Assembly (NCBI RefSeq): GCF_036365525.1
Contig: NC_090399.1
Span: 11,531,558 to 11,595,557, forward strand
DNA: 64,000 nucleotides
Origin: Heterodontus francisci
Lineage: Eukaryota
Direction of reading: 5' to 3'
The notes beneath the pieces are model-generated. The model ran no database searches. It had not been told where the DNA came from and worked only from the letters and a program-made list of their open reading frames with translations. The first letter of the stretch is position 1, and each line of letters opens with the position of its first letter. Position numbers and translations under genes: made by a program. Positions 5,014 to 62,860 of this stretch are shown one piece after another.

Positions 5014-5014
5014 T

Positions 5015-14000: not shown

Positions 14001-14250
14001 AATTGGATTGAATTCAGTTCAATGACTGGAAATAGGGAATGAATTGGATTGAATTCAGTTCAATGACTGGAAATAGGGAATGAATTGGATTGAATTCAGT
14101 TCAATGACTGGAAATAGGGAATGAATTGGATTGAATTCAGTTCAATGACTGGAAATAGGGAATGAATTGGATTGAATTCAGTTCAATGACTGGAAATAGG
14201 GAATGAATTGGATTGAATTCAGTTCAATGACTGGGAATAGGGAATGAATT
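5015..14250. repeat. 41-bp tandem satellite, about 225 copies
   Basis: Unit aatgactgg(g/a)aatagggaatgaattggat(t/a)gaatt(ctgttc/ctattc/ctgtac/atattc/cagttc/ttgtac) repeated without interruption. Confidence 0.98.
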
Positions 14251-16880: not shown

Positions 16881-16934
16881 GTTTTGTATCGTGTGTTACA
16901 ATGGTAACTGCTAGTCCGGCTTTTCCTTTTCCAG

Positions 16935-17000
16935 GTCTCCCTCATCTCATGCAGCAGGTGGGAAATGACCCGAGGGAGAGAATCGCAGCTCACCTGACAG
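16935..17000 (+). CDS. tnf: TNF-like gene A, exon 3
   Basis: ttttccag|GTCTC...ACAG|gtacca; 66 nt, phase 1 to 1; GLPHLMQQVGNDPRERIAAHLT (THD strand A motif AAHL). Confidence 0.9.
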
Positions 17001-30919: not shown

Positions 30920-31930
30920 CTTGAAGCACTTTACACCTGTACATGTGCAGCATGCTCTGCTGGTACATGTGAACCCGTCTCTGCCTGCACAGGTGAGGAA
31001 CACCACCCTGTACAGGTGAAGTAGTCCCTGCCTATACTAGTACAGTAGTCTCTACCTGCACTGGCAAGGCACTATCTGCCTATACAGGTGAAGCAGTCTC
31101 TGCCTGTACAGGTGAAGCAGCTGCAACATGTGCAGGTGAAGCACTCTGTTCCTGTACATGTGGCTCTGCTTGTACAGGTGAAGCAGCCTCTACCTGTAGT
31201 GATGAAGAACTCTCTACCTGTACAGGTGGAGTACTCTCTGCCTGTACGTAGGAACATAGGACTCAGGAGCAGGAGTAAGCCATTCAGACATTCGATAAGA
31301 TCGTGGATGTTGTGAACAAATTTCTACCTGTGGAAGTCTCCGCCTGTACAGGTGAGGCGATCTCTGCCTGTACAGGTGAACCACTCTCTGTCTATACAGG
31401 TGAAGTAGTCTCTGCCTGTAGAGGTGAAGGCCTTGCTGCCTCTATAGGTGAAGCACTCTCTGCCTGTACATGCAACCCATTTCTACCTGTACAGGTGAGG
31501 CAGTCTCTGCCTGTACAGGTGAAGCACTCTCAACCTGTACATGTGAACCTGTTTCTACCTGTACAAGTAAAGCAGTTTCCACCTATACCAAATAAAGTAG
31601 TGTCCGTTTGTACATGTGAACCTGTTTCTGCTTGTACAGGTGAAGCAGTCTCCATTTGTGCATGTAAAGCTGTCTCTGCATGTACAGCTGAAGTACTCTC
31701 CGCCTGTACAGGTGAACCTATTTCTACCTGTACAGGTGAGACAGTCTCTGCCTGTACAGACAAAGCACACGCAACCTGTACATGTGAACCTGTTTCCACC
31801 TGTACAAGTGAAGCAGTTTCCATTTGTACACGTGAGTATGTTTCTGCCTGTACAGGTGAGGCAGTCTCTGCCTGGCTGGTGAAATTATTCTCTCTGCACA
31901 GGTGAAGTATTCTCATTCCATACAGGCAGA
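30920..31930. repeat. 24-bp minisatellite in gene B intron 3
   Basis: Unit ~tacaggtgaagcagtctctgcctg, roughly 40 diverged copies, with a short retroposon-tail piece near 31250-31310. Confidence 0.93.
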
Positions 31931-32492: not shown

Positions 32493-33882
32493 AGAGAATG
32501 ATAGGGCTTTTCATCCCTCCCCCAACCCAAGCAGACAGCGATGAGGACTAAAGAAAATCTGAATGAATAAAGTCTAAGGGAGTAGGAGACAGGAATTCCT
32601 GGGCCTGGAGAGTGGGGGGAAGGGTGAAGAGGAGAGGGGGATGGAGCAGCAGGGTGGAGTTTGGATAAGCTCCTGGTTCTGCTAAGTTACTCTGAAAGTT
32701 GAGACGGGAGACAAGGCTGACACCTACATGTGGCAGCTCTGAAAGAGAAATTCTTGAACACCCCTTTACCAACTCTGATCAAACTGAACACGAGCGGGAA
32801 CCAAGTATTTGTGACACTATCCTTAGCCCTAGGACCACTGGAAGATTCCTCAGAACATGCTCCTGTGTTTAATAAGGTTATTCCTGAAGAAGGAGGTGCA
32901 AGGGTTGTTCTCCTTGGAGCAGAGAAGGCTAAAAGGTGGTTTGATAGAGTTGTTTAAAGACATGAAGGATTCAGATAGATTAAATGAAGGGAAACTGTTT
33001 GCAATGGCTTGATAACCAGAGCGTACAGATTTAAGGTGATTGGCAAAAGAACCGGAGGTGACCTGAGGAAAAAGTTAGGATATGGAAAGTACTGCCTGAT
33101 AGGAGGGTGGATAGCATTTCAATAGTAACCTTCAAAAGGGCATTGAATAAATATTTCAAAGAGAAAAAAATTGCAGGGGAAAGAGTGGGGAAGTGGGACT
33201 AACTAAGTTGCTCTTCAAAAGAGCTGGCACAGACTCGAGGGGCCGAATGGCCTACCTTCATGCTGTATCATTCAATGATTTCATGGATTAAGGAAATTCC
33301 CAGATCCGCAAATGGAATCTCAGTCTGATATTTAGATTGTTGAACCTGTGTGACCAGATACTGGTCTTTCGACCAGTATGTCTTGTACCGTATAAGGTAA
33401 CTTATATAATATATCTAAGATAATTTTCATGGTGTTATATTTTATTTTTATTTATTCATTGATATTTAATTTTGAATGTAACTTGTACTGATTTGTCACT
33501 GGGGAAGTATTAATTGCTGGTTGGAAATTTCTCACTTCTCAGCTCCTGGAACAGGCCGGGAGCAGATTTTGGGAAATTTCGTGATTCCCTGCCCCTCCCC
33601 CTCCATCTCCCCTTCCCCATTCCATGATTTTCCACCTATTAATGGAAATTTGTGATGCAGAACTTCCCAACATGCTGCAGGAACTGAGGCGAGTGAATGG
33701 TTGCTATGGAAATCTTGTGCTCTCACAACGCGCTGACAGAATTTTAGGAATATATTCTCGGAGTGTAGGCCTCACTGGCATGGTCTGGATTTATTTGATC
33801 TAAGAAGGTAGTGGTGTGCCAAATTCTGCCACAAAATTGTTTTGATACATACTGAAGAACGTAAGAAATAGGAGCAGGAATT

Positions 33883-41845: not shown

Positions 41846-42104
41846 AAAGCGAACTCAGCAACAATTATAGGTGTTGATTCTCACCTCACCCACTGAAAGT
41901 GCTATAAAAACTGCATTGCACTCGATCCCATCAGTTGACATCATTAAGAATGATCAATAACTAAATGCTTGAAATGACAATTAATTTCACCATCGAATAT
42001 TCACGGGACGCTCAATGCACTCGAGTCTTTAAACCTGAACATCACTTTTAAGACAGTGGTCTGAACATGTCTAACCATGTCTGTTTGATAGGAGCAGCAA
42101 TGAA

Positions 42105-42270
42105 GAGAGGAAGTGGGCATGGTGAACTGAGAGTTACATGGAGTTTGGGGCAGCTCAGACCTCAGAGGTGTTGTTTCCATTCCAGTTAAAACTGAAACTT
42201 ATCACTGTTTCCCTTTTCCTTTGCATCACTTGTATGCATAGGTTCTTCCAGGGCAGCCAGAATATATAGA
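42105..42270 (+). promoter_or_regulatory. Gene C promoter: ETS/PU.1 GAGGAAGTG, IRF-like AAACTGAAACT, degenerate kB site, TATATAGA
   Basis: Motifs at 42107, about 42189, 42241 and 42263; ATG at 42381. Confidence 0.5.
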
Positions 42271-42380
42271 GAACTCCTATCACTGGCAGAGACACAGACA
42301 AGCTCAGAGAGCTGAGAGTGAGAGTCGCTGGGTCAGAAACAAGGCTGCCACTAACAAAGCTCCGACCGACATCTAACACC

Positions 42381-42557
42381 ATGAGTTGTGAGAACAAGTT
42401 GCTGGACCTTGAGACTGGAGGAGTGGTTACGCTCAGGCAGTCAGAGCCGAAGAGAAGCTGTTTCTGGCAGTCTCTCTGTGCAGTGGCTGTGCTGGGTTTG
42501 CTGGCTGTGTCTTCCTACCTGTTACTCTGTCAGCTTGGAGTTTTACCTTCAAACCAG
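42381..42557 (+). CDS. TNF-like gene C, exon 1 (cytoplasmic tail and TM helix)
   Basis: accATG; MSCENKLLDLE..LCAVAVLGLLAVSSYLLLCQLGVLPSNQ|gtgtgt; 177 nt. Confidence 0.9.
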
Positions 42558-42824
42558 GTGTGTGACTGTATCTGGAGTTTGATATTATTCAGCTTTAGCT
42601 AAGTGAGTAGCAACATGGCAGTCTAGTGTCTGATAAACCCTTTACCTGGTGTTGATCTAGAGTCTGAGAATCAGACAGAGTCTGGCTCACTCCAGTGTCT
42701 CTGTGTAAATACAGATAATCTGTCTGCAGATCTGCTTTGCACCTTTGTACAATGGCCGTCTTGTGTTATATGGAAATTTGGGGTGAATTTCACATATTAA
42801 TCTCTTTCCTTCTTGTTGCTGCAG

Positions 42825-42906
42825 GAAGTATCACTGAACTCAAAAACTGCCCGATCACAGGACATGAGGAATCATTCATCTGTGACAACAGTTCCTGCTA
42901 GTAATA
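42825..42906 (+). CDS. TNF-like gene C, exon 2
   Basis: gttgctgcag|GAA...AATA|gtgagt; 82 nt, phase 0 to 1; EVSLNSKTARSQDMRNHSSVTTVPASN. Confidence 0.82.
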
Positions 42907-43259
42907 GTGAGTACTCTCTCAATCAATCTATCTCTCTCTATCAATCTATCTCTCTCTGTTGATCTGTCTCTCTATATTGATCTATCTCTCTATCAATCTA
43001 TTTGTATCAATCTGTCTTTATCTCAGTCTGTCTTCCAAACTATTTGTATCAATCTTTCTTTCTATCAATTGCTCTCTCTCCCTCCCTCTCTCTCATCAAT
43101 CTATCTCTTTCACTCTATTTCTCTCTACATTTTTCTCTGTCAATCTCTCTCTCACTCTCTATTTCTCTCTCTCTTGCTCAAACTCTGCTCTCTCTCTATC
43201 TGTCAGTCAGTTTTAGGTCTGTGTGTGTTCCAATAGTGACTGAGCTTTTCCTTTTCCAG

Positions 43260-43325
43260 GTGTCCCTCATCTCATGAAGCAGGTGGGAAATGACCCGATG
43301 GGGAGAATCGCAGCTCACCTGACAG
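43260..43325 (+). CDS. TNF-like gene C, exon 3
   Basis: ttttccag|GT...ACAG|gtatga; 66 nt; SVPHLMKQVGNDPMGRIAAHLT. Confidence 0.9.
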
Positions 43326-45112
43326 GTATGAGAACTGTTATCTATGTTATCGCTAGAGTGTCCCATGTGGAATTGTCCACAGTCATTGGGCAGGTGCAGT
43401 CGAAGTGTGGGGAGATGTGCTTAAAGAAAGGAATTAATTGGACACTGATGAAGTCTTGCCTTCTTGGTTCCTAAGAAGTTTGACCCAATCAGGATAACAG
43501 GATATTGGTAACATGCATTTTGATTGGCTCCAATTTTCTAGGAACAATGGAGACAATTGAATAGCAGTAAAATATTTTTGATAGGTTTTGAAAAGAATGT
43601 AAACCAATTCGGTAAGTAATTGTTGGTGAAGTGTCTTTTATTGGTTGTGAGGAGACTTGAACCAATCAGCATAAGGGTATGGGAGCAAAGTGTTTTTGGA
43701 GGAAATTGGAGTAAATAGGAGCGTATGAAAATTGATGAACAGGAAGAAATTCACTGGTTTGCCGAGTCTGCCCCATACCCAGTGATAAGACTCATCAAAA
43801 CTGCACACTTCCTACTCCCTCCCTCAGTAATGTAGATCTCCTGGGAGATCTACAAACCCATGGCAGGGGACAAAAGACTCGGGGAAATTCCTCATCGTCC
43901 AGCTCCAGTGATCAAAACCAGTCTGGGAGCTCGCTCAGACCATGTGTTCTCTCTAAAGTCTCTTAGCTTCTCTTATGGTGTGATCTCTGTTGCAGTCAGT
44001 AACCGGTCCCTCCGGAAGACAATACAGAGAGTCAGCACTCACCACACCAGCCGGCAATGCATTCCAAAGGTTCAGTACTCTCTAGGAAAGGGTTTCTGAT
44101 GAAGTGTGTTAGCGGGAATGAATCTAGAAGAATCATTCGACACTCAGGTCTGCTCCAATGTCAAACAGTTTATTTAGTTACGCCAGCGAGGAGCAGGTCA
44201 CTGGGCTGTCCAGATGCCTCTCCACCGAACAAAGGAAAATCCACAACAGATATACAGTTACTCAGCCCATCCCGGCTGGACATAATCCAATCATAACGGT
44301 TATTGATTACATATATTACATTCATTACCAATAAAATTATTAATTATGCATCATGTGGTTGTGGGGATAGCTCATGGTTCGCCCCTGACCATCTCAGCTT
44401 GTTTACCAAACCCCCCCTTATCAACTATCCTTGAGTCTTCACAATGAATCCTTCTACCTCTATCAGGCCTGCATTCCTAGTTGCTTTGTGTAGTCCGCAA
44501 TTAGACAGATCAGCTTTCTTATGCACTGATATGGGGGGCGCTCCTTGGTCAGGCTAATTGCCTGTGCTAAGCAGTACCATTCTCAAGGCTGCAAGCTAAC
44601 TAACTTGTCCCACAATGCCTTGGGTAAATGCCCCATTTTGTAACAATATGTGGCTACACTTTCATCTTATATATATATATATATATATATATGTGTATTT
44701 ATTTAGCTGCATCGGCCACAATTTTTTTCCCTCTAAAAGTGTTTTAGATCAGTTACCAGAGATTTTGAGTATATTTCACCAACTGGCTTTGGGGTACTAC
44801 TGAACTGAGGTCTCGAACTTGCACACAAGAATAAAGGAAGAAATTTCCGAAGCAATTATTTCGGAACTTTGGGAGCATGTCTCCATTACAGTTGCATTCC
44901 CACCCTCCCCCAACTTAGGGTTTATCCAGAAATTTAGATATAAGTGGCAAGTAATCAATGGGCATGTAAGGTGGAGGGAATGGGTTCTTGAAAGCAACAG
45001 AGTTGCTAACAGGAAAATTAAATGCGGACAAGAAGGGTATTATGTGAAGCAATATTGAAGCACAAATCTATTTCATTGTTATGTTGTTCCCTCTCTCTTT
45101 CTCTCTACGCAG

Positions 45113-45519
45113 CAACCAGCAAAGGAAAGAATGTGATTTGGCAGAATGAGGCGGACTCCACCTTTGCCGAGGGTGTGGAGTTCACGGACAACAGTCTCGT
45201 CATCAAAACCCCTGGTCGGTACTTTGTCTACACCCAGGTGGTCTTCTCCAGCAGGGGCTGTCAGAACAAGACTGTCTATCTGAGCCATGAGCTCGCCAAG
45301 CTCTCACCCAGTTATCCAGAGGAAGTCTTGCTACTGAGAGCCACCAAGTCAGCCTGTCATTCCCGCCAACACGGAGAGCCCTGGTACAAGACCTCCTATC
45401 AGGGAGCCATATTTGAGTTTGAGGAGGGAGATCAGATCTACTCCAGGGTTAGTGAGGAGATGGTGGGATATGTAGACACTGCCCAAGGAAAGAGCTTCTT
45501 TGGAATATTTGCTTTGTGA
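45113..45519 (+). CDS. TNF-like gene C, exon 4 (THD); spliced product 243 aa
   Basis: ctacgcag|CA; VIW..GRYFVYTQVVF..GC..KSAC..PWY..KSFFGIFAL*; 177+82+66+407=732 nt. Confidence 0.95.
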
Positions 45520-46974
45520 GGAACCTGAGTTACTTCTAGCGATTGGCCAGTAATGATGACTGATTGAGAATTTCAGATTGAAATACAGTGGAAACTGTTC
45601 AGGACACATTGTCCTATCCTGCACTAATTGGACAAAGAGACTCATTTCTCCTTCATTTTATTTAAACACTTGCAGAGACAGAAACTATCAAATGTGTTGG
45701 TGTTTTAGAATTGGGTAGTGTGGTGGGTTATCACACTGCACTTTCAGCTCTGCCAATCCAGATTGATGCACAATCCAGAGTGTTAGTGATCGGAGGGAGT
45801 CTGTGCCTCTCCTCACTCACTCTCTGCTCCTTTAATCCTGTATTGAGAGCAACTGGTGCAGTCTGAAGAATTATATATCTCTCTGAGGATTCACAAGCTG
45901 TGTTAAACTGCCAGATGGGCTTGAACACATCAGTCAGAATAGGCTGGAGGGGCTGAATGGCCTACAACTGTCCCTATGACTTTCCTGTTCTCCCACATAC
46001 CTGTAACACTGGGAGCAGGTCTAGGTGATTCACTGCTGTGCAGGATTCATCATGTTTGATGAGATGAATTGTGTTTTAAACATATTTAGAGACAGTTGTT
46101 TGATAATCGTGCTCTAAATAAGCTAATTTTCTGATTTAATTTAACTCTATCAGCAACTGGTCCTTTACTTTATTTCATATTTAATTGATATTTAATGTTG
46201 TTTATGTTATTTAAACTGGTACTCCTCAGGGAGAGAGTAATTAGACAATCCCAGAAGCTAACAAGTGGGTTATCAGGTCTGATATTCAGACTGGTTAGCC
46301 TGTGTGACCTGTTATTGGTCCTTGAAGAGTATGGCCTATGCCTTGTTGTCTATTTGTATTATAATATATCTCTCATATCTCCTTGGATCTTCAGTGGCGA
46401 TGCTCATGCAAAGTCTCTGAGCTTTCTGTTGGCTGATGAAGGCCAACCAATCTCCCAGCTGCCAACTGGCTTTCCACCTCTACAATGTGATTGGTCAACT
46501 TTTCACAGGATGTTAACTTGCTAGAACTTGATTGCTTGACACTTAACAAGTAGATTCTACAAACACTGTAAAAACTGGCCAAAATGCATGAAAGTGAATT
46601 ATTTGAAGAAACCAATATTGATTTATTTCTGCTTTATCAGGTTATTATTTGAGTTGAATATGTGCTGCTCTTATTTAATGTTCATTGTTGGGATTTTTTT
46701 CCTGATTGGTTGCCATGGAGAAGTCACGTTCCCATAATGCCCTGCAGTCACCATTGGCCTTTATTCATACTGTGTAACAGACAGTGATCCCAGCAAGAGA
46801 TCTGATTGGTTCTATAGACCAGGAGATTTTCTATCTGGAATGTTCAACTGTTGGATATTAATTGTGGTGCAGTGACCAAAAATCTATGTTTTATATAAAA
46901 ATGTAACATTTTTTAAAGATGGTTTTCAGTGGCATAAATGCTGTAAAGTTTCAGATATTCCAGATTGATTTAAG

Positions 46975-47062
46975 TTATTATTTAAATATATTTATTAATT
47001 GGTGTATTTATAATATTTATTATTTATATTTACTGCTGAGCAGATGGATGGGAATTAATAAA
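46975..47062 (+). promoter_or_regulatory. Gene C AU-rich element cluster and polyA signal
   Basis: Several ATTTA pentamers at 46975-47032; AATAAA at 47057-47062. Confidence 0.7.
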
Positions 47063-47199
47063 ATATTTTAAAAGTATGAATTGTTTCTTTCCGATTACTT
47101 GCACATTGGATTGTGTTTAGAGCTTTTCACGGGGAATGATTCCAGATGAGGGATGAATTTTTGTCAGTTTAAAGCCTGCAATTCAGACACAGGATCATC

Positions 47200-47328
47200 A
47201 GATTGAGATTCTGAGAGAGGCTATCAGGATTGGGCATCTGAAAGAGAGGATCAGAAATTGGGAATCTGAGAGGGAGGATCAGGAATTGGGAATCTGAGAG
47301 GGAGGATGAGGAGATTGGGAATCTGTGT
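47200..47328. repeat. Short ~28-bp tandem repeat
   Basis: tgggaatctgagagggaggatcaggaat-like unit, about 4 copies. Confidence 0.7.
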
Positions 47329-47804
47329 AAAATGACACATCAGCAGATGTATAATTTTACAGGTCATCGGGAGATGTCTCTAGTTTCAGAACTATTTCTA
47401 GGCGATTCCTCCCTGACTCCCTCAATCAATAAAGATAGATCAGGAGATCAATGATTATATCAATGCATGACAAAGCACAAGGCAACTGTAGCTAACAGAC
47501 TCCCAGAATGTCCCTCCCCCCACCTCACACCCAAGAACATTCCATATCCTTTTTTTTCAGAGATTATAACATACCAACCTTGACCACATCCTTTGTTAAC
47601 CATGTTTCCAGTGGGTACAAAACTGTGACAAAGAAGATACATCCGGATACCCAACTGAAGTTTCACTTGTGTATTTTGCAGACAAGCTCTCCAACCCACT
47701 TGTCGCTCTCTGTCTCAAAGATCTTACCCAAAGTTACCACATTCAATCCTGACATAACTTTCTAAACTCCAAATGAATGAAAAAAACTCACTAATTATAG
47801 CAGA

Positions 47805-49137
47805 CATAAGAACATAAGAACTAGGAGCAGGAGTAGGCAATACAGCCCCTCGAACCTGCTCCGCCATTCAAGGTGATCATGGCTGATCTCATCTCGGCCT
47901 CAACTCCACTTTCCTGCCCATTCTCCATAACCCTTCAACCCATTACTAATTAAAAATCTGTCTATCCCCTCCTTAAATTTACTGAAAGTCCCGACATCCA
48001 CCGCACTCTGGGGTAGTGAATTCCACAGACTTACTATCCTTTGAGAGAAGTAATTTCTCCTCATCTCTGTGTTAAATCTGCTACCCCTTATCCTAAAACT
48101 ATGACTTCTCGTTCTAGATTGCCTCAGCAGAGAAAACATCCTCAAATACCTTATGGAAGTCCAGATATACTACATCTACAGGATCCCCATTATCCACTTT
48201 GCTTGTTACAGCTTCGAAGAACTCTAGCAAATTAGTCAATCTCCTTAATCATCTTATATTCCTCAATTAAATCTGCTCTCGTTCTTCTAAACTCCAGAGA
48301 GTAAAGGTCTAAACTTGTCTTCATAAGACAAAGCCCTCATCCCTGGAATCAATCTAGTGAACCTCCTCTGAACTGCCTCCAATGCAACTACATCCCTCCT
48401 CAAGTAAGGGGACCAAAACTGTACGCAATACTCCAGGTGCAGTCTCACTAATGCCTTGTACAGTTGCAGCAACACTTCCCTACTTTTATACTGTATTCCT
48501 TTAGCAATAAATACCAACATTCCATTTGCCTTCCTTGTTACCTGCTGTACCTGCATATTCGTTTTCTGCGATTCATGCACGAGGACACCCAGATCCCTCT
48601 GCACCAAAGCACTCTGAAGTTTCTCTCCACTTAGATAATAGTTTGTCTTTCTATTCTTCCAACCAAAATAGATAACCTCACACTTATCCACGTTAAACTC
48701 CATCTGCCAAATTTTGGCCCATTCTCCTAACCTATCCATATCCATTTGTAAATTTCTTATTTCTTTATTGCAACTTACTATCCCACCTATTTTAGTGACA
48801 TCTGCAAATTTGGCTATAGTACCTTCTATCCCTGCATCCAAGTCATTAATATAGATTGTAAATAGTTGGGGCCCGAGAACCGAACCCTGAGGCACCCCAC
48901 TAGTAACATCTTGCCAACCAGAAAAAGGCCCATTTATCCCAATTCTCTATTTTCTGTTGGTTAGCCAATCCTCTGTCCAAGCTAATAAATTGCCCCTAAC
49001 CCTATGTGATCCTAACTTGTGTATTAACCTTTTGTGCGGCACCTTATCAAATGCCTTCTGGAAGTCCAGATATGCTACATCTGCAAGATCCCCATTATCC
49101 ACTTTACTTGTTACAGCTTCAAAGAACTCTAGCAAAT
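47805..49137 (-). mobile_element. CR1 LINE RT/3' fragment
   Basis: YLDFQKAFDKVPH, PQGSVLGPQLFTIYIND and LEYCVQFWSPY; (tcttatgt) tail. Confidence 0.9.
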
Positions 49138-49269
49138 CTCCAAGATATCTGCGCTCCTCCAACTCTGGCAGCTTTTAGCTGCCTAGGCAGTAAGTTCTGC
49201 AATTCTCTCCCTTAACTTCTCTTCTTCTACCTCTCTCTCTTCCTTTAAGATGCTCCTTAAAAAGCAAAT

Positions 49270-50100
49270 AAATATTGGGAATACCGAAGCCATTGCCACA
49301 AACTCCATTTCCAAAGCCACTGACTCCATCCTTCTCCCTGGACACTGTCTGACACGGAACTAGACCGTCATAACCTTTGTCCGTATTTGATCCCAAGGTG
49401 AGCTTTCAACCAAATATCTACTACATTCCAAAGGCCACCTGTGTAACATTGCCAAACTCCACATTGTCACAGCTCATCTGCTGCTGAAACCCTCATTCAT
49501 ACCTTAGTTATCTCGAGGCTTGGCTATTCCAAAGCTCTCCAAGCCGGCCTTCCACATTCTACCCTCCATAAACTCAAGATGATCCAAAACTCTGCTCCCT
49601 GTGTCCTTATTCGCACCAAGTCCCATTCACCCATCACCCCTGTGCTGGCCGACCCAGATTGGCTCCTAGCCTGGCAACAGCTCGATTTTAAAATTCTCAT
49701 CTATGTTTCCAATCCCTCTGTAACTTAACCTCTCCCTATCTCTGCAATCTCCTCCAATCCGATAACCCTCCGAGATATCTGCACTCCTCTAATTCTGGCC
49801 TCTTCCACATCCCCAATTTCCTTCGCCCCATCATTCATAACCATATCTTCAGCTGCCTAGGTCCCTATCGCCGGAATTCCCTCCCGAAACCTCTCCACCA
49901 CTCTTCTCTCTCCTTTAACATGCCACTTAAAACTGACCTCTTTGACCAAGCTTTTGGTCACCTGTCCTAATTCTTTTTATTATTCATTCATGGGATGTGG
50001 ACTCAGTGTCAAATTTGATTTGATAATCCCTTCTGTGAAGCTCCTTGAGACAATTTACTGTGTTAAAGGGAATATATAAATGCAAGATGTCATTGTTGAT
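49270..50100 (+). mobile_element. L2 LINE 3' fragment
   Basis: IQNSAPCVLIRTKSHSPITPVLAD..WL, typical of the L2 ORF2 C-terminus. Confidence 0.7.
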
Positions 50101-50559
50101 TTGAGACTCAGTATCGGGTGAGGATTTGGGTCGTGTCCTCTTCACCCATCATCTCGCGTAGGACTAAGATCACCATTGGCAGTTCCTTCTAGCCTGACAT
50201 CCCTTAACTCTCTGCTGGAAATATTGTAACCTCACAGCCCCCTGTCATCTCTTCCACTGATAGGATGAGTTCATCACTTGCGAAATCTTGTACAATTGCT
50301 GGCGTCACAGGCGTGAGAGGGCACTGTGCATGTGGGTGATCCATATGTAGCTGTTTGATGAGCTTGTTCACAGTCTGGCAGCTAGCGGTCTTATCATGTA
50401 ACGTAACATGAGATATTATAAGGGGAACTAATTGGGTAGATCAGGCGAAACTATTTCTGCTGTTTGGGTTCTAGGACTAGGTGTCACAGCTGAAAATTAG
50501 AGCCAGGCCTATCAGGAGTGAAATTAGGAAGCATTTCTTCATGCAAAGGGTGCGAAAGA

Positions 50560-52232
50560 TAAGGCTGAAGCATTTGCAACAATCTTCAGCCAGAAGTGTC
50601 GAGTTGATGATCCATCTCGGCCCCCTCCTGAAGTCCCCAGATGCCAGACTTCAGCCAATTCGATTCACTCCGCGTGATATCAAGAAATGACTGAAGGCAC
50701 TGGATACTGCAAAAGCTAGGGCCCTGACAATATTCCGGCAATAGTACTGAAGAACTGTGCTCCAGAACTTGCCGCGCTCCTAGCCAAGCTGTTCCAGTAC
50801 AGCTACAACACTGGCATCTACCCGGCAATGTGGAAAATTGCCCAGGTATATCCTGTACACAAAAGGCAGGACAAGTCCAACCCGGCCAATTACTGTCCCA
50901 TTAGCCTACTCTCAATCATCAGTAAAGTGATGGAAGGTGTCATCAACAGTGCCATCAAGTGGCACTTGCTTAACAATGACCTGCTCAGTGACGCTCAGTT
51001 TGGGTTCCGCCAGGGTCACTCATCTCCTGAACACATTACAGCCTTGGTTCAAACATGGACAAAAGAGCTGAACTCAAGAGGTGAGGTGAGAGTGACTGCC
51101 TTTGACATCAAGACAGCATTTGACCGAGTATGGCATCAAGGAGCCCTAGTAAAACTGAGGTCAATGGGAATCAGGGGTAAAACTCTCCACTGGTTGGAGT
51201 CATACCTAGGACAAAGGAAGATAGTTGTTGTTGTTGGAGGTCAATCATCTGAGCTCCAGGACATCACTGCAGGAGTTCCTCAGGGTAGGGTCCTAGGCCC
51301 AATCATCTTCAGCTGCTTCATCAATGACCTTCCATCAATCATAAGGTCAGAAGTGAAGTTGTTCGCTGATGATTGCACAATGTTCAGCACCATTCATGCC
51401 TCCTCAGATACTGAAGCAGTCCGTGTAGAAATGCAGCAAGACTTGGGGACAATATCCATGCTTGGGCTGAAAAGTGTCAGGCAATGACCATCTCCAACAA
51501 GAGAGAATCTAACTGTCTCCCCATTCAATGGCATTACCATCGCTGAATCCACCACTATCAACATCCTAGGGGCTACCATTGACCAGAAACTGAACTGGAG
51601 TAGCCATATAAATACTGTGGCTACAAGAGCAGGTCAGAGGCTAGGAATCCTGAGGCGAGTAACTACTCACCTCCTGACCTCCCAAAGCCTGTCCACCATC
51701 TACAAGGCACAAGTCAGGAGTGTGATGGAATACTCTCCACTTGACTGGATGGGTGCAGCTCCAACAACACTCAAGAAGCTCAACACCATTTGAACAAAGT
51801 GGCCTGCTTGATTGGCACAGCATCCACAAATATTCACTGTCTCCACCACTGACGCACAGTGGAAGCAGAGTGTACCATCTACAAGATGCACTACAGCAAT
51901 GCACCAAGACTCCTTAGACAGCACCTTCCAAACATGTGACCTCTACCACCTAGAAGGACAAGGGCAGCAAATGCATGGGAACACTGACACCTGCAAGTTC
52001 CCCTCCAAGTCACACACCATCCTGACTTGGAACTATATCACCATTCCTTCACAGTCGCTGGGTCAAAATCCTGGAACTCCCTTCCTAACATCACTGTGGG
52101 TGTACCTACCCCACATGGACTACAGCGGTTCAAGAAGGCAGCTCACCACCACTTTCTCAAGGGCAATTAGGGATGGGCAATAAATGCTGGCCTGGCCAGT
52201 CATGCCCACATCCCATGAATGAATAAAAAAAA
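50560..52232 (+). mobile_element. Family B CR1/L2-group LINE, RT region to polyA tail
   Basis: ORF 50828-51487 with NY.PISLL, QFGFR, FDIKTAFDRVWH, GVPQG.VLGP and LFADD; tail gaatgaataaaaaaaaa. Confidence 0.9.
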
Positions 52233-52750
52233 ATCAGTTTCTCTCTCAGTCTCTTTTGATCAATCTATCTTTATCAATCTATCTCTATTAATCTCTCTAT
52301 CAATCTCTGTCTCTCTCGATCAATCAATCTCTGTCGATCTATTTTTATCAATCTATCTCTATTAATCTCTCTCCCAATTTCTCTCAATCAATCTCTCTCG
52401 ATCAATCTATCTCTATTAATCTCTCTACCAATTTCTCTCGATCAATCTATCTCTATTAATCTCTCTATCAATCTCTATTAATCTCTCTATCAATCTTTCT
52501 CTGTCTTTTTCCCCCTCTCTCTATTAATCTATCTCTCTATCAATCTATCTTTGACTCTCTCTTTCTCTATCTCTTTCTCTCTATTAAACGCTCTCTCTTG
52601 TTCAACCGCTATTTATCCATCTAACTTTATTTCTCTAAGAAGCTTTGATTTTATCTCTATGCAAATGAGTGGGTTTTGACTGAGTTAAAATCTCTCCCTC
52701 TCTCTATCTTCCCATGTCTCTATCTCTTGCTCTCTTCCTGTCTCCCTCTG
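52233..52750. repeat. CT/ATCT-rich tract resembling gene C intron 2
   Basis: atcaatctatctctctat units also occur at 42913-43200. Confidence 0.8.
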
Positions 52751-52814
52751 TTAGTTAGTTTTGGGTATGTCTGTGTTACAATAGTAACTGAGAATCTGCC
52801 TTTTCCTTTTCCAG

Positions 52815-52880
52815 GTCTCCCTCATCTCATGAAACAGGTGGGAAATGACCCAAGGAGAAGAATCGCAGCTCACCTGACAG
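52815..52880 (+). CDS. TNF-like unit D, exon 3 (no exon 1 or 2 found)
   Basis: ttttccag|GT...ACAG|gtacca; 66 nt; xLPHLMKQVGNDPRRRIAAHLT. Confidence 0.75.
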
Positions 52881-54581
52881 GTACCAGAAGGTATTTGATC
52901 CTAGTTGGTTTTCCAGAAGTTATCAATTTAGCTGGCTAATGTGTGCATTTTAGTCAACAGATTATCTAAGTATTTGTACTGAAGTCGATAGGGTGGATAG
53001 TAGGGAGTACAGAACAAGAGGGCTTACTTTAAAATTGGAGCTAGGCCGTTCAGGGGTGCCATCAGGAAGCACTTCTTCACACTAAGGAGGGTAGAACAAA
53101 TCTCAAACTCTGTCCCCCGTGAAAGCTATTAAGGTTGGGGTTCAACTGAAAATTTCAAAACTAAGCTAAGTAGATTTTTCTTGAGGATTATGGAACCATG
53201 GCAGGTCAATGGAGTAAAGATACAGATCAGTCGTGATTTAGTTGAATGGTGGAACAGATTGAGGGGCTGAATAGACTCCTCTTGTTCCTATGAAAATATT
53301 CATCAGCTGAAGGAATAAATGAAAGAGCTATTCTCATAGGTAACATCAACTTTGTCACATTGTGTATTGGAACAGTAACCAAGAGTTGAGTTCCCTATCT
53401 CAGTCTTGTTACTTTGGGGAAGATGGCAAGTTATGGTCCAGCTCCACTGCACTGGGAGGTTCAGGCATGTCAGAGGGACAATCATTTCCGAATTGTAGAG
53501 GTTGGAAATCATTAAATTATGAAGGCTTTTCACAGAGTGAGAGATCCCATGGCATTATTATCCCTCTGGCTACAGGTGTGGTGCCAGAGAACTGCAGGGC
53601 AGCTAACATTGTGCCATTGTTTAAAAAGGGAGAAAGGGCTAGACCATGTAATTACAGGCCAGTCAGCCTAACCTCGGTAGTGGAAACATTATTGGAAAAA
53701 AATCTGGGTGACAAGATAAATCTTCATTTGGAAAGATCCAGATTAATCAAAGACAGTCAGCACAGATTTGTTCAAGGACAGCCGTGTCTGACGAACATGA
53801 TTGAATTTTTTGAGGAGGTTACAAGGAGGGTCGTTGAGGGTAGTGCATTTGATGCAGTCTGTATGGATTTTAGCTAGGCTTTTGACAAGGTCCCACATGG
53901 CAGACTGATCAGGAAAGTAAAAGCTCTTGGGATCCAAGCCAAAGTGGCAAGTTGGATCTAAAATTGGCTCAGAGGCAGGAAGCAAAAGGTAATGGATGAC
54001 AGCAGTTTTTGTGACAGGAAGGCTGTTGCCAGTGGGGTTCCACAGGGCTCGGTACTGCGTCCCTTGCTTTTTGTGGTATTTATCAATGATTTTGACTTGA
54101 ATGTAGGGGGTATGATTCAGAGGTTTTGCGATGATACAAAAATTGGCCACGTGGTTGCTAATGAAGAAGAAAGCTGTAGACCGCAGGAAGAATGGACTAG
54201 TCAGGTGGACAGAACAGTGGCAAAAAGAGTTCAATTCGGAGAAGAATGAGGTAATGCATTTGGGGAGGGTTAACAAGGCAAGGACAGTGGCATAGCCGGT
54301 ATGTTACTGAACTTGTAATCTAGAGGCCTGACTAATGCTCTGAAGACATGTGATCAAATCCAATGTGGCAGCTGGGGGAATTTAAATTCGATTAATTAAT
54401 AAATTTGGTATAAAATGCTAGCTGTTTTAATAATAATCATGAAACTACTGGATTGTAGTTTAAAAACACATCTGATTTACTAATGTCCTTCAGGGAAGGA
54501 AATCTGCTGTCCTTACCTGGTCTGGCCTACATGTGACTCCAGATCCACAGCAATGCATTCGACTTTTAAATGGCCTAGCAA

Positions 54582-56420
54582 GGGGCGGCACAGTGGCGCA
54601 GTGCTTAGCACCGCAACCTCACAGCTCCAGCGACCCGGGTTCAATTCCGGGTACTGCCTGTGTGGAGTTTGCAAGTTCTCCCTGTGTCTGCGTGGGTTTC
54701 CTCAGGGTGCTCTGGTTTCCTCCCACATGCCAAAAGACTTGCAAGTTGATAGGTAAATTGGCCATTATAAATTACCCCTAGGATAGGTAGGTGGTAGGGA
54801 AATATAGGGACAGGTGGGGATGTGGTAGGAATATGGAATTAGTATTCTTTTGGGCCTCCTTATCTCGAGAGACAATGGATACGCGCCTGGAGGTGGTCAG
54901 TGGTTTGTGAAGCAGCGCCTGGAGTGGCTATAAAGGCCAATTCTGGAGTGACAGGCTCTTCCACAGGTGCTGCAGAGAAATTTGTTTGTTGGGGCTGTTG
55001 CACAGTTGGCTCTCCCCTTGCGCCTCTGTCTTTTTTCCTGCCAACTACTAAGTCTCTTCGACTCGCCACAATTTAGCCCTGTCTTTATGGCTGCCCGCCA
55101 GCTCTGGCGAATGCTGGCAACTGACTCCCACGACTTGTGATCAATGTCACACGATTTCATGTCGCGTTTGCAGACGTCTTTATAACGGAGACATGGACGG
55201 CCGGTGGGTCTGATACCAGTGGCGAGCTCGCTGTACAATGTGTCTTTGGGGATCCTCCCATCTTCCATGCGGCTCACATGGCCAAGCCATCTCAAGCGCC
55301 GCTGACTCAGTAGTGTGTATAAGCTGGGGGTGTTGGCCGCTTCAAGGACTTCTGTGTTGGAGATATAGTCCTGCCACCTGATGCCAAGTATTCTCCGAAG
55401 GCAGCGAAGATGGAATGAATTGAGACGTCGCTCTTGGCTGGCATACGTTGTCCAGGCCTCGCTGCCGTAGAGCAAGGTACTGAGGACACAGGCCTGATAC
55501 ACTCGGACTTTTGTGTTCCGTGTCAGTGCGCCATTTTCCCACACTCTCTTGGCCAGTCTGGACATAGCAGAGGAAGCCTTTCCCATGCGCTTGTTGATTT
55601 CTGCATCTAGAGACAGGTTACTGGTGATAGTTGAGCCTAGGTAGGTGAACTCTTGAACCACTTCCAGAGCGTGGTCGCCAATATTGATGGATGGAGCATT
55701 TCTGACATCCTGCCCCATGATGTTCGTTTTCTTGAGGCTGATGGTTAGGCCAAATTCATTGCAGGCAGACGCAAACCTGTCGATGAGACTCTGCAGGCAT
55801 TCTTCAGTGTGAGATGTTAAAGCAGCATCGTCAGCAAAGAGGAGTTCTCTGATGAGGACTTTCCGTACTTTGGACTTCGCTCTTAGACGGGCAAGGTTGA
55901 ACAACCTGCCCCCTGATCTTGTGTGGAGGAAAATTCCTTCTTCAGAGGATTTGAACGCATGTGAAAGCAGCAGGGAGAAGAAAATCCCAAAAAGTGTGGG
56001 TGCGAGAACACAGCCCTGTTTCACACCACTCAGGATAGGAAAGGGCTCTGATGAGGAGCCACCATGTTGAATTGTGCCTTTCATATTGTCATGGAATGAG
56101 GTGATGATACTTAGTAGCTTTGGTGGACATCCGATCTTTTCTAGTAGTCTGAAGAGACCACGTCTGCTGACGAGGTCAAAGGCTTTGGTGAGATCAATGA
56201 AAGCAATGTAGAGGGGCATCTGTTGTTCACGGCATTTCTCCTGTATCTGACGAAGGGAGAACAGCATGTCAATAGTCGATCTCTCTGCACGAAAGCCACA
56301 CTGTGCCTCACAGTGAGGCACAGTGTGGAATTAGTATAGGATTAGTATAAATGGGTGGTTGATGGTCGGCACAGACTCGGTGGGCTGAAGGGCCTGTTTC
56401 AGTGCTGTATCTCCAAAAAA
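54582..56420 (+). mobile_element. HE1-like V-SINE split by an RTE insertion (54582-54845 and 56326-56420)
   Basis: The two halves join into the SINE consensus seen at 33883. Confidence 0.85.
54846..56325 (-). mobile_element. 5'-truncated RTE-clade LINE with an uninterrupted RT reading frame (54897-56321)
   Basis: QCGFR, FIDLTKAFD, GVKQGCVLAPTLF, LLFADD and C-terminal CSTCGRACHSRIGLYSH; 12-bp TSD tggaattagtat. Confidence 0.93.
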
Positions 56421-57803
56421 GAGCCACTCAGTCCAAGGACAATTAGCTTCAGACAATAAATGCTGGCCCTGCGAGCATTGCTCACATCCAAGAATAAAAT
56501 AAAGGAATACATAATAAATGGTAGGATACTGAGAAGTGTAGAGGAACAGAGGGACCTTGGAGTACATGTCCACTGACCCTTGACAGTGGCTGGTCAGGTA
56601 GATAAGGTGGTCGAGAAGGCATGTGGGATACTTGCCATTACTAGCCATGGAATAGAATATAAGAGCTGGGAGGATAGGCTGGAATCATATAAAATACTAG
56701 TTAGGCCACAGCTGGAGTACTGGGTGCAGTTCTGGTCACCACACTAAAGGAAAGGTGAGTTGCACTGGGGAGGGTACAGAGGAGGTTTATGAGGATGTTG
56801 CTTGGACTGGAGAATTTTAGTTATGAGATAAGATTGAATAGGCCAGGGTTGTTTTCTTTGTCACAGAGGAGGCTGAGAAGAGATCTAATTGAAGCGTATA
56901 AAATGATGAGGGGTCTGGATAGAATGGATAGGAAGACCCTATTCCCCTTGGTTTAGCGGTCCATTAACAAGGGCCATAGATTTAGGGGAAGAGATAGGAG
57001 ATTTAAAGGGGATTTGAGGAGGATACTTTCACCAGAGGGTAGTGGGAGGAACTCACGGCCTGAAAGGGTGATAGAGGCAGAAGCCCTCACAGCATTTAAA
57101 AAGTACTTGGATATGCACTTGAAATGCTGTAACCTGCAAGGCTATGGACTAAGAGCTGGACAGTGCGATTAGGCTGGATGGCAACTTGTCAGCCTGCACG
57201 GACACGATGGGCCGAATGGCCTCCTTCCCTGCTGTAAATTCCCATGATTCCATGATTATTTTGAATAAAAGGGGAGATCTCCCTGGTGTGCTGGACTTCT
57301 CAGTATCCTCCCTCAACCAAAATCACTAGAAAACAAATGGTCTGTTCATTATCATATTGCTGTTCCTGGGACCTTGCTCACATTAACTGCTTCATTTCCT
57401 ACATTACAACAGTGGCTGCCCTTCAAACGTGCTTTGTTGGTTGGGAAAACCTTTGGGACATCCTGCGGGAGTGATAGCTTCTGTACAAATATAAGCTCTT
57501 ACTTTTCCTCTGCTGCCTTTAAGGAACCAATGTAAAATGTAGTTGATCCAACTTCACACGGAACAAGACAGTCCATCGTTTAACACAAGTTGTTAGTTTC
57601 ATTCTGAGAGGACCCAAGATAATGCACCTTGCAAATGGAAAACTCTTGCAGCAGGAACCAGAATAATTTTGAAAGTGCCATAAAGGAGAACTTAATGTAA
57701 AATAGATACAAAAAGTGGCAGCACGTCCTTTGACAGGAAGAACATTTGCTCACCATGTAACTTATTCCATTCTTGCATTGTTTCCTGTCTCTTGTCCTTT
57801 CAG

Positions 57804-58216
57804 CCTCGAAAGCCTTGGAAGGAAAGAACATGATTTGGCAGAATGAGGCGGACTCCACCTTTGCCGAGGGTGTGGAGTTCACGGACTACAGTCTCGTCAT
57901 CAAGACCCCTGGTCGGTACTTTGTCTACACCCAGGTGGTCTTCTACAGCAGGGGCTGTCAGAACAAGACTGTCTATCTGAGCCACGAGCTCGCCAAGCTC
58001 TCACCCAGTTATCCAGAGGAAGCCTTGCTACTGAGAGCCATCAAGTCAGCCTGTCATTCCCGCCAACACGGAGAGCCCTGGTACAAGACCTCCTATCAGG
58101 GAGCCATATTTGAGTTTGAGGAGGGAGATCAGATCTACTCCAGGGTTAGTGAGGAAGTGGTGGGATATGTAGACACTGCCCAAGGAAAGAGCTTCTTTGG
58201 AATATTTGTTTTGTGA
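57804..58216 (+). CDS. TNF-like unit D, exon 4 (intact THD, about 97% identical to gene C exon 4)
   Basis: cctttcag|CC; MIW..GRYFVYTQVVF..KSFFGIFVL*; in frame with exon 3. Confidence 0.8.
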
Positions 58217-59269
58217 GGAACCTTCACTTCTAGCGATTGGCCAGTAATGATGACTGGTTGAGAATTTCAGATTGAAATACAATGGAAACAGTTCAGGACA
58301 CATTGTCCTATCCTCCACTAATTGGACAAAGGGATAAATCTCTCTGCCAGTTTAGTCCTGCCTCGTTATTTAAAGGTTATCCATACCAAGAATTGTTGTT
58401 CTGATATTTGTATAAGAAAGCGAATGATATTCCACTGCCCTCTGCCTTAATGCACTATCGGAGGTGCCGAGTTTTGAAGGAGACGTTAAACGGAAGCACC
58501 ATTTTGATGAGGAGCAGGAGAATTCTCCTTGGTGTCCTGGCCATTGTTTGCCCCTCAACCAACAACACTAAAAAAAAAACAGATGATCTGGTTATTCAGC
58601 ACAATGCTGTTAATGGGATCTTGCTGTCTGCAAATTGCCTGCCGAATTTCCCGCTGCAAAGTGACTGCACGTCAAAAAGGTGCATCATTTTGGTTGTTAA
58701 GGGCACTATATAAATGCAAGCCTTTCTTTTAATGGAAGCATAACCGGCTGCAAGTAAATGAGTTAAGGCCTCTGTCGCATTAGACTGGGTAACTGGTTGT
58801 GACAGGAGTGAATGCCCACATCCTCATTTTTCAGGCAGTCATTTCCAGGTTGCACAGGGATTGAACAAGTAAAATGAATTGATCGGTGGTGGTGGGGGGG
58901 GAGGGGGACGGTGAGGTGTGGAGGGGAGGTGGTGCAGTGGGATCCAACACTGTCCATTCACCTTTTCAATCTGGGATTGTTTGAATCTGGCCTAGCCTAA
59001 TGAGACAAATCAATGTCTGCTCTCTGCTGCTTTATGTTACCTGGGCTGTGGGATGATTATCAGACAGGTATTGAGCCTAACATTCAGACTGGTTAGCCTG
59101 TTGACTGTAGAGTCTCACATTACTACATGCTATAACTAGTTTTTTTTTTAACCTGGAATGGTTTTTATGTGTAATTTATTTGTTAGTACGTGTACAGCTA
59201 CTTTCTCCTAGCATCCCATGTAAGTGCTTCTTATGGAATAAGTAAAACTTTAACATATGCCGACTCATC

Positions 59270-59690
59270 GATACTTCCTTGAGTGTAGAAGATTACGGGG
59301 TGATGTATTTGAGGGGTTTAAGATGATTAAAGGATTTGATAGGGTAGATAGAGAGAAACTATTTCCTCTGGTGGGGGAATCCTAAAGAAGGGGGCAGAAC
59401 CTTAAAATTAGAGCCAGGCTGTTCAGGAATGATGTCAGGAAGCACACCTTCACACAGAGGGGAGTGGAAATCTGGAACTGTCCCCCCCCCCTACACCATC
59501 CCAACCCCCCAAAAAAAAGCTGTTGAGGCTGGGGGTCAATTGAAATTTTCAAAATTGAGTTTGATAGATTTTCATTCAGCAAGGGTGGTTGAGCGTTCCA
59601 GAACCAAGTTAAGATACAGATCAGCCATGATGAATCTGAATGGTGGAACAGGCTTGAGGGGCTGAATGGTCTCCTCCTGTTCCTATGTTC
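59270..59690 (+). mobile_element. CR1 3' fragment
   Basis: RRLRGDVFE..K..GFDRVDREKLFPL coding and CR1 tail. Confidence 0.7.
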
Positions 59691-59984
59691 CATATTGAGC
59701 TTGGTGTTTAAATTTCTCCTCCAGAAACAAAGCAGGGGTAAACACAAATTTTCTCCATTTGCTGAACTCCTACGGTTCAGTAACTCCCTCGTTGAATAAA
59801 AATCTATTAATCACAGTTTTGAAAATTTTCAATTTGCCCCCAGCCTCAACAGCATTTTGGGGGAGAGAGTTCCAGATTTCCACTGCCCTTTGTGTAAGGA
59901 GGTCATTATCTTCTCAATGCTGTGGTCAAGCTCCATTGGCCTCAGATTGGGACACCAGCTGCATTGTGGGATGGTTCTTCTCCA

Positions 59985-60341
59985 GAGCGGCACAGTGGCA
60001 CAGTGGTTAACACCGCAGCCTCACAGCTCCAGCGACCCGGGTTCAATTCTGGGTACTGCCTGTGTGGAGTTTGCAAGTTCTCCCTGTGTCTGCGTGGGTT
60101 TCCTCCGGGTGCTCCGGTTTCCTCCCGCATGCCAAAGACTTGCTGGTTGATAGGTTAATTGGCCTTTATAAATTGCCGCTAGTATAGGTAGGTGGTAGGG
60201 AAATATAGAGACAGGTGGGGATGTGGTAGTAATGTGGAATTAGTGTACGATTAGTATAAAATGGGTGGTTGATGGTCGGCACAGACTCGGTGGGCCGAAG
60301 GGCCTGTTTCAGTGCTGTATCTCTAAACTAAACTAAACTAA
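59985..60341 (+). mobile_element. HE1-like V-SINE
   Basis: Full SINE with (ctaaa)n tail. Confidence 0.88.
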
Positions 60342-60599
60342 GCTGTAATAGCCAGTGAGGGGCCTCTATGGAGGAAGGACATTCCACAAACGACAGAGAG
60401 CCCACCATTGCCCAACACACAACATACTAGGTGATTGTCCTTCTAAGTGCCAGCACAGGCCCAATGGGCCAAATGGCCTCATTCTGTGCTGTATCATTAT
60501 ATGATTCGAAGAATGGTTCAGACAAAATGAGTTTTATGTTTGAGGTGTTTCTAATATATTGTTTAACAATCATTGTTTACAGTAGTGAGAGAAAGCTGT

Positions 60600-60710
60600 A
60601 TGTTTTACATTAAAACATGATGTTTATTCGAAGGATGCCAGGAACAAATGTTAGCCTGACGTAGTGAATGTATCTAAACAGGTTTTAAGTATGAATATGC
60701 ATTAAATAAA
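60600..60710 (+). promoter_or_regulatory. Unit D 3'UTR end: CDE-like hairpin and AATAAA
   Basis: ATGTTTTA-CAT-TAAAACAT at 60600-60618; AATAAA at 60705-60710. Confidence 0.6.
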
Positions 60711-61079
60711 TTTCTTAGTGCGTTTTGATGCTGGAACTGTTCTATTTTGTTTGTGCTTGTGCTTTTACTTTTACATACAGTTGCATGTTTTGCTCATGTG
60801 GCTTTCATGGGAGTGCACACCAATCCAAGCAGCCCATTGGTTGCATTCCACGTGCTGATACAACTTCTCAGACACCATGTCCCCAGGCACAAGGATCAAT
60901 GGCTCTCTGGTCCAATCAGCCTGTCATCTGTGGTTGTGATGTCTTGTGCATCGGACACTGCTTAACCATCCAGATTCCTGTAATCTGCTGGAGCAGCTAA
61001 AAAAATGGAAAGAAAATCTGGACAATCCATCTCTGGCCCCTTTAGGCAATTGAAACTCGTGCAGGGGATCACATAGGTT

Positions 61080-62860
61080 GGGACGTTATACTGGAACTGT
61101 ATAAAACACTAGTTAGGTCACAGCTGGAGTACTGCTTGCAGTTCTGGTCACAACGCTATAGCAAAGATGTGATTACATTAGAGAGGGTATGTAGGAGACT
61201 TATGAGGATGTTCCCTGGACTGAAGAATTTTGGTTATGAGATAAGATTGGATAAGCTAGGGTAGTTTTCTTTGGAACAAAGGAGGCTGAGGGAAGACTGC
61301 ATTGAAGTGTGTAAAATGATGAGGGTTCTGGGTAGAGTGGATAGGAAGGCTCTATTCCTCTTGGTTGAGGAGCCCGTAACAAGGAGGCACAGATTTAGGG
61401 GAAGAGGGATTTGAGGGGAATTTATTTTTCACTCAGAGGGTGGTGGAGATCTGGAACTCACTGCCTGAAAGAGTGATAGGGGCAGAAAACCCGCATCACA
61501 TTTAAAAAGCACTTGGATATGCACTTGAGCTGCTGTAAAGCTCATGGTGTAGGGGGAAGCATATTGGCATTGACAGAAGATTGGTTAGCTAACAGGAAAC
61601 AGAAATTTTTCTGGTTGGCAAGATGTAATGAATGATCCACAGGGATCTGTGCTGGGGCCTCAACCTTTTTACAATTTATATAAATGACTTCGATGAAGGG
61701 ACTGAAGGTATGGTTGCTAAATTTGCTGATGACACAAAGGTAGGTAGGAAAGTAACTTGTGGAGAGGACATAAGGAGGATGCAAAGTGATATAGATAGGT
61801 TAAGTGAGTGGGCAAAGACCTGGAAAACGGAGTATAATGTGGGAAAATGTGAAATTGTCCACTTTGGCAGGAAGAATAAAAAAGAAGCATATTATCAAAA
61901 TGGTGAGAGATTGGCGAGCTCTGAGATACAGAGGGATCTGGGTGTCCTAGTGCATGAATCGCAAAAGGTTAGTATGCAGGTACAGCAAGTAATTAGGAAA
62001 GCTAATAGAATGTTATCGTTTATCACGAGGGGAATTGAATACAAAAGTAGGGAGGTTATGCTTCAGCTATACAGGGCATTAATGAGACCACACCTGGAGT
62101 ACTGTGTACAGTACTGGTCTCCTTGTTTAAGGAAGGATGTAAATGCCTTGGAGGCAGCAGAGAAGGTTTACTAGACCACCTCAAGCCACCTGGAATGGGT
62201 GGGTTGTCTTATGAAGAAAGATTGGACAGGCTAGGCTTGTATACGCTGGAATTTAGAAGAGTAAGAGGCGACTTGATTGAAACATATAAGATTCTGAGTG
62301 GTTTTGACAGGGTGGATGTGGAAAGGATGTTTCCCCTTGTGGGAGAATCTGGAACTAGGGGTCACTGTTTAAAAATAAGGGATTGCCCATTTAAGACAGA
62401 GATGAGGAGAAATTTTTTCTCTCAGAGGGTCGTGAGTCTTTGGAATTCTCTTCCTCAAAAGGCGGTGAAAACATAGTCTGAATATTTTTAAGGCAGAGGT
62501 AGATAGATTCTTGAAAAGCAAGGGGGTAAAAGGTTATCGGGGGTAGGTGGAAATGTGGAGCAATCAGTTCAGCCATGATATTATTGAATGGTAGAGCAGG
62601 CTCGAGGGGTCGAGTGACCTACTCCTGTTCCTAATTCATATGTTCATATGTAAACTACAATCTACGGACCTAGAGCTAGCTGGAAAGTGGGATTAGGCTG
62701 AATGTGGTTGACTCTTACATGCTCTAGCAAGGGCAGTTAGGGATGGGCAATAAATGCTGGCCTGGCCTGCGATGCCCACCTCCCATGAATGAATAAAAAA
62801 AAAGGCTGCTTGTCGGCCTGCATGGACATGACGGGCTGAATAGCCTCCTTCTGTGCTGTA
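61080..62860 (+). mobile_element. Nested CR1 fragments
   Basis: ORFs 61632-62174 and 62123-62476 (KFADDTK, RPHLEYCVQYWSP) lie inside another CR1 3' end. Confidence 0.85.

Follow-up and report, generated by a model that had tools for sequence, protein, structure and literature searches.

Unit D, the last of four TNF-family units (A, B, C and D, all on the + strand) in a stretch of the horn shark genome, is probably a recently decapitated paralog that was homogenized with its neighbors by gene conversion, and is likely a young pseudogene (probability about 0.65, judged from the sequence). The stretch, in the following called the window, comprises 64,000 nt (Heterodontus francisci contig positions 11531558-11595557, + strand), and all coordinates are window-based unless stated otherwise. 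Five more close copies (E to I) are located on the - strand within 91 kb past the window end, which results in a tandem of nine TNF units with nine exon-4 copies.

In unit D, exons 3 and 4 are open and flanked by canonical splice sites (AG/GT for exon 3, AG for exon 4). The encoded TNF homology domain was assigned to PF00229 with 108.5 bits, and its best PDB matches are TNF (E 8e-23). The 3′ untranslated region (UTR) contains a hairpin of the constitutive decay element (CDE) type with the sequence ATGTTTTA[CAT]TAAAACAT (60600-60618), which by sequence agrees with the Roquin CDE definition in the available part of PMC6294493 (stem of at least 6 bp with a YRY/YRN triloop), as it has 8 bp and a CAU loop. 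This pattern, which was derived from the two sites themselves, has two occurrences in the window, one in A (22068) and one in D, against 0 expected in 100 shuffles, and an Rfam scan of 42000-61500 yielded no matches. The AATAAA of D is not located at the position homologous to the signal of gene C, and the D UTR harbors two ATTTA motifs compared to 13-16 in the UTRs of A, C and E-I (16 in C). An intron-2-like CT tract, open exons 3 and 4, canonical splice sites, a CDE hairpin and an AATAAA had been listed for unit D in a preliminary description of this DNA, and all of them were found as claimed. Two side observations concern the introns. A young antisense fragment of a long interspersed nuclear element (LINE) is located in intron 3 (54845-56310), of which 276 nt are 99.6% identical to a copy ~125 kb downstream. 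The end of intron 2 (52649-52816) is open for 56 codons in the frame of exon 3 and contains a hydrophobic run, but no ATG; the same stretch is open for 101 codons with an ATG in E and F and for 63 codons in H and I, and is probably a by-product of the CT tracts.

The head of unit D, consisting of promoter, exon 1, intron 1 and exon 2, is missing. Neither in the interval between C and D nor in the rest of the 224 kb searched (the window and the next 160 kb downstream) could tblastn, queried with head sequences from 11 shark proteins, or a sensitive blastn search detect a remnant of exon 1 or 2, and the best stray tblastn match for the exon-1 queries had an E-value of 0.12. This bears out the earlier statement that no exon 1 or 2 lies between the polyA signal of gene C and 52233. 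Genome-wide, eight exon-1 matches (of 10 candidates; 2306 contigs) were counted against the nine exon-4 copies of the cluster, and no exon 1 with a type II anchor belongs to D. No N gap is present in the window or in the following 160 kb. An inversion carrying the head of D beyond unit I was rejected, as no remnant was detected in the 224 kb. The promoter scan was uninformative, since strict TATA and kB patterns recovered only two of eight real promoters. In the RefSeq model of D (XP_067865047, 222 aa), the first 64 residues are taken from 49579-49719 and ~50264-50312, and 49436-49819 matches dispersed repeats.

The tail of a 5′-truncated LINE ends at 52233 and is directly followed by the CT tract of D intron 2, not by the rest of the old repeat fragment that is interrupted upstream of the LINE. 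Because the repeat fragment stops at the LINE and the LINE tail meets the CT tract directly, the head was likely lost in a single deletion that runs from the LINE tail to a point within intron 2. The LINE is a 3′ fragment of 1.7 kb that has an AATAAA of its own (52222). Its identity to other copies does not exceed 93% (best 40 of 7940 candidates), and from its sequence it is likely older than the private coding drift of D of ~1.5%. Unprocessed 5′-truncated pseudogenes occur in birth-and-death immune gene clusters with concerted evolution. Like these, D has kept its introns, has lost promoter and first exons, and shows high identity to its neighbors in short tracts only; unlike these, it has no stop or frameshift yet.

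By its sequence, unit D is an old tandem paralog and not a fresh copy, because it has its own introns and its own 3′UTR: apart from repeats and short motifs, intron 3 and the UTR past 58334 are unlike those of C and E-I. For the same reason, i.e., introns and UTR that do not match, a recent inverted copy of E-I was rejected as the origin of D. The tract 52760-52889 (end of intron 2 and exon 3) shows 95% identity to E-I, and exon 3 of D has three differences to exon 3 of E and six to that of C. Identity to the paralogs drops sharply at both ends of these short tracts (93-97%). Since high identity stops abruptly at the tract edges while the introns differ, we infer gene conversion of D with its neighbors. 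Exon 4 of D is a mosaic with states common to C, to C and G, and to F and I at different sites. Exon 3 and the acceptor of unit A (16892-17008) are 90% identical to D, with exon 4 of A only 60% identical in protein, and the likeness in exon 3 points to conversion across distant paralogs.

For the comparison with other sharks, protein sequences were used, in which c1 to c4 are the RefSeq names of the lymphotoxin alpha-like paralogs. The shark TNFSF1/2 cluster (white-shark lymphotoxin alpha-c1 to c4) resembles D in the domain PF00229, in TNF as the best solved match and in the tandem array. It differs in that the horn-shark D has no exons 1 and 2, in that five horn-shark units are on the opposite strand, and in the likeness of the c-type TNF domains, which amounts to 93-98% in the horn shark and to 80-88% among the white-shark paralogs. 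Within this cluster, the exon 3/4 junction of D is c2-like. Its 31 residues have four best matches with 24/31 each, to proteins of white shark (c2), basking shark, Heptranchias and Pristiophorus, all of them c2-type, and an orthology of D to lymphotoxin alpha-c2 is moderately supported by this junction. White-shark c1 and c2 differ in three exon-1 residues, and therefore c2-type genes have their own head there; exon 2 differs between two long-stalk catshark proteins.

The coding changes of D were compared in the last 396 nt of exon 4, which are common to C-I, with the open frames of G, H and I taken from the RefSeq proteins P0024, P0066 and P0063. Six changes are private to D, of which four are non-synonymous and two synonymous. 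Random changes in this stretch would be 73% non-synonymous, 21% synonymous and 6% stops. With only six private changes, the frame would by chance alone be expected to stay open (P = 0.71 for no stop in six), and consequently the open frame of D does not indicate selection. Two private changes, N>Y and A>V, align with Asn46 and Ala156 of TNF. Both columns are invariant in 63 of 63 elasmobranch proteins from species other than the horn shark, which are related sequences and not independent trials. Among 72 proteins, otherwise-invariant columns are broken nowhere in 63, once in five, twice in three and three times in one, and the proteins with two breaks are D and two divergent B-type proteins. 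The changes at invariant sites thus lean toward relaxed selection on D.

Several points weigh against a pseudogene of this kind. The excess of private non-synonymous changes at invariant columns (2/4 in D, 0/10 in C and E-I together) is not significant (Fisher P = 0.066), and 9 of the 72 proteins break at least one invariant column. Unit D is without stop, frameshift or broken splice site. Furthermore, the perfect 8-bp CDE-type hairpin was kept in a UTR that is otherwise unalignable, which suggests selection on the mRNA of D during most of its past and fits a recent loss as well as continued use. The head deletion is not datable. The assignment to c2 rests on 31 residues, and the domain tree (35 of the 72 proteins, consisting of the c-type groups and seven others) does not resolve D, as all seven horn-shark c-type copies group together and 16 of 32 inner branches are open.

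The decapitated-pseudogene explanation would account for these data as follows. Gene conversion with C and E-I may have rendered the TNF domain of D redundant, after which the head could be lost at little cost. The frame would still be open because little time has elapsed and because mutations that arise are erased by conversion. Transcripts running on from C may to some extent be spliced to D, which would be noise with no selected function.

It is also conceivable, although unlikely, that the head is absent from this haplotype or assembly only and that D is a complete c2-type gene on other chromosomes of the population or in the correct sequence of the locus. The cluster contains recent duplications (E-I, 88-97% identity over blocks of 1.6-5.2 kb), the junction lies between the A tail of a LINE and a low-complexity tract, the private divergence of D is only ~1.5%, and c2-type genes have heads in other sharks. 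These points are countered by the uninterrupted 224 kb, by the ninth exon 1 that was not found on any of the 2306 contigs, and by intron 1 and exon 2 of C as well as the UTR of D, each of which has a single copy. The two changes at invariant sites point to a period in which D was not under selection.

In the preliminary description, D was viewed as a possible alternative ectodomain cassette, i.e., exons 1 and 2 of gene C could splice either to their own exons 3 and 4 or to those of D and thereby yield two TNF ectodomains from one promoter. In its extended form, this explanation holds that D serves as a working 3′ cassette of C by polyA read-through, with C exon 2 or 3 spliced to D exon 3 or 4, which would put the ectodomain of D and a UTR poor in AU-rich elements (AREs) but bearing a CDE on the membrane anchor of C. 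D would have been captured after its head loss, and a polyA-read-through switch would choose between an ARE-rich unstable mRNA and an ARE-poor, CDE-controlled one with a variant ectodomain. From the sequence, both the working cassette and such a capture appear improbable. The described phase holds: exon 2 of C ends in phase 1 (A) and exon 3 of D starts with GT, so that C exons 1-2 and D exons 3-4 read as 245 aa through an AGT codon. The junctions C2>D3 (245 aa), C3>D4 (245 aa) and C3>D3 (267 aa) are all in frame, both units are on the same strand, and 5.7 kb separate the AATAAA of C from exon 3 of D. However, exon 2 ends in phase 1 in 7/7 complete units checked, and because all of them do so, the fit was inherited from the tandem duplication. 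The joined product would restore the 245-aa length of c2-type proteins, and with exon 2 of white-shark c1 and c2 nearly identical, the C head would be a natural stand-in; splice sites and hairpin of D are intact as well. On the other hand, a C2>D3 splice has to leave out C exon 3, which lies 353 nt further on, as well as the terminal exon of C, whereas read-through usually skips the last exon only, as far as the available parts of the literature go. The C and D domains are 95% identical (80% for white-shark c1/c2), and for this reason an ectodomain swap would add little; moreover, D carries the two changes at invariant residues.

Annotated products do not favor the cassette either. Among 22 matches, no protein of at least 239 aa matches D exon 4 at 100%. 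The 90% cluster of gene C has one member and there is no C-D isoform in RefSeq, which weighs little, as annotation depends on the tissues sampled. Seven + strand AATAAA motifs are located between the stop of C and exon 3 of D, also a weak point, since D intron 3 has six. No RNA run was listed for 57790-59290; six presumed RNA runs contained 0.07-0.10 of its words where paralog transcripts alone would give 0.09-0.16, and are no evidence. No positive support was obtained for two ectodomains from one promoter. Nevertheless, low-level read-through from C to D is plausible in any case, as conjoined transcripts were reported for 8/10 tested neighbor pairs less than 10 kb apart (PMC2953495, in part). 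The most distinctive contribution of D to such transcripts could be its UTR, with two instead of 16 ATTTA motifs and the CAU-loop CDE-type hairpin. A known system of this kind is TWE-PRIL, a TNFSF12-TNFSF13 read-through in which the cytoplasmic and transmembrane part is joined to the receptor-binding domain of the neighbor (PMC6862657, in part). Like its parents, C and D are adjacent same-strand units with in-frame splice junctions. TWE-PRIL differs in that both parents are complete, their domains are different, exon 6 is joined to exon 2, and transcript and protein have been shown; in the horn shark, the unit further downstream has no head, the two domains share 95% identity, and a C-D transcript is hypothetical.

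A further possibility is that D is silent and retained as a donor of variants to expressed paralogs by gene conversion, which is very improbable. Its exon-4 mosaic shares states with C, with C and G, and with F and I, but shared states give no direction, the private coding alleles of D are found in none of C and E-I, and conversion tracts link complete genes too, so no donor role is needed. Of the earlier suggestion of a decapitated pseudogene acting as conversion donor, the pseudogene part is the best fit, while the donor role stays hypothetical. Least probable of all is translation from the exon-3 ATG (MKQVG..., 154 aa) into a soluble TNF domain without leader, with the LINE or the CT tract supplying a cryptic promoter. 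The leaderless form itself had likewise been proposed earlier. It would profit from a frame that is open from this ATG and from a RefSeq model of unit F that starts at the same one, but the ATG is the conserved internal Met of all units, with C at -3 and A at +4 as a weak context, neither signal peptide nor anchor is present, the LINE is only a 3′ fragment with its own polyA signal, and VEGI-174 as the nearest precedent showed no secretion and is probably a genomic-DNA artefact according to the available part of PMC2954241. VEGI-174 and VEGI-192, N-terminally short forms of TL1A (TNFSF15), resemble D in a TNF domain without the normal anchor and differ from it as products of a complete gene.

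The coordinates of all features are summarized in Table 1.

Table 1. Features of the TNF-family units C and D, with the positions of units A and B (window coordinates).
Feature	Position	Strand	Remark
Unit A	from 15023	+	TNF-family unit
Unit B	from 28208	+	TNF-family unit
Unit C	42381-45519	+	TNF-family unit
C exon 1 CDS (cytoplasmic tail and transmembrane anchor)	42381-42557	+	identity to XP_067865046
C exon 2 (82 nt, long stalk, ends in phase 1)	42825-42906	+	single copy in genome
C exon 3	43260-43325	+	
C exon 4 CDS (TNF homology domain)	45113-45519	+	
C AATAAA, after AU-rich block	47057-47062	+	
Repeat debris, source of two substitute 5′ exons in the RefSeq model of D	49579-50312	+	no TNF exon-1 homology
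Old repeat fragment, cut off at 50551	50419-50551	+	continuation not found behind LINE
LINE, 5′-truncated, sense, A tail	50555-52233	+	tail abuts D intron 2; inferred deletion junction
D intron 2 remainder (CT tract and acceptor)	52234-52814	+	CT tract from 52234
Unit D	52815-58216	+	TNF-family unit, without head
D exon 3 (66 nt, open, GT donor)	52815-52880	+	
D intron 3 (4923 nt, repeat-rich)	52881-57803	+	homologous to intron 3 of C and E-I in common repeats only
D exon 4 CDS (TNF domain PF00229, open)	57804-58216	+	
Inferred gene-conversion tract	57819-58334	+	96% identical to C 45122-45640; ends 118 nt into 3′UTR
CDE-type hairpin (8 bp stem, CAU loop)	60600-60618	+	common to unit A
Candidate polyA signal of D (AATAAA)	60705-60710	+	

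The upstream neighbor, gene C, consists of four exons that encode 243 aa without stops, identical to RefSeq XP_067865046 (P0001), and its intron 1 and exon 2 are present in one genomic copy. The 3′ end of gene C (45079-47152, comprising the end of intron 3, exon 4, the whole UTR and flank) is 89% identical to unit E. The start of its exon 4 is shifted 6 nt downstream relative to E-I, and an E-type tail is combined with a long-stalk head. Units E-I are complete short-stalk TNF-like genes of 238 aa (contig ~11607900-11686100, spacing 15-21 kb), oriented tail to tail with A-D. For unit F (contig 11624680-11626691, - strand), the RefSeq model XP_067865269 (P0064) has 154 aa from the exon-3 ATG, unlike the genomic sequence with an intact four-exon frame of 238 aa. 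Upstream of unit A, a satellite of 9.2 kb with a period of ~41 nt (5014-14250) ends ~770 nt before the ATG. Unit B carries a degenerate minisatellite in intron 3 (30922-31905), and its AATAAA (32566-32571) follows only ~70 nt past the stop, perhaps resulting in a short ARE-free UTR.

No paper on this horn-shark locus was found in the literature searched, and the available passages of PMC11762692 and PMC10751288 are silent on it. For the whale shark, eight TNFSF1/2-like sequences, six of them in tandem, are given in the available part of PMC7674686. With regard to annotation, two RefSeq models are flagged as doubtful, that of D with its repeat-derived N-terminus and that of F, which is cut to 154 aa. 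If the cassette were real, it would illustrate how a tandem pair turns into one gene with alternative terminal exons, and the TNF family would have a second example similar to TWE-PRIL, with the difference lying more in mRNA control than in the ligand. If D is a pseudogene, as preferred here, it would be a case of birth-and-death evolution in a shark cytokine cluster, in which conversion erases the difference between paralogs and the head is then lost.

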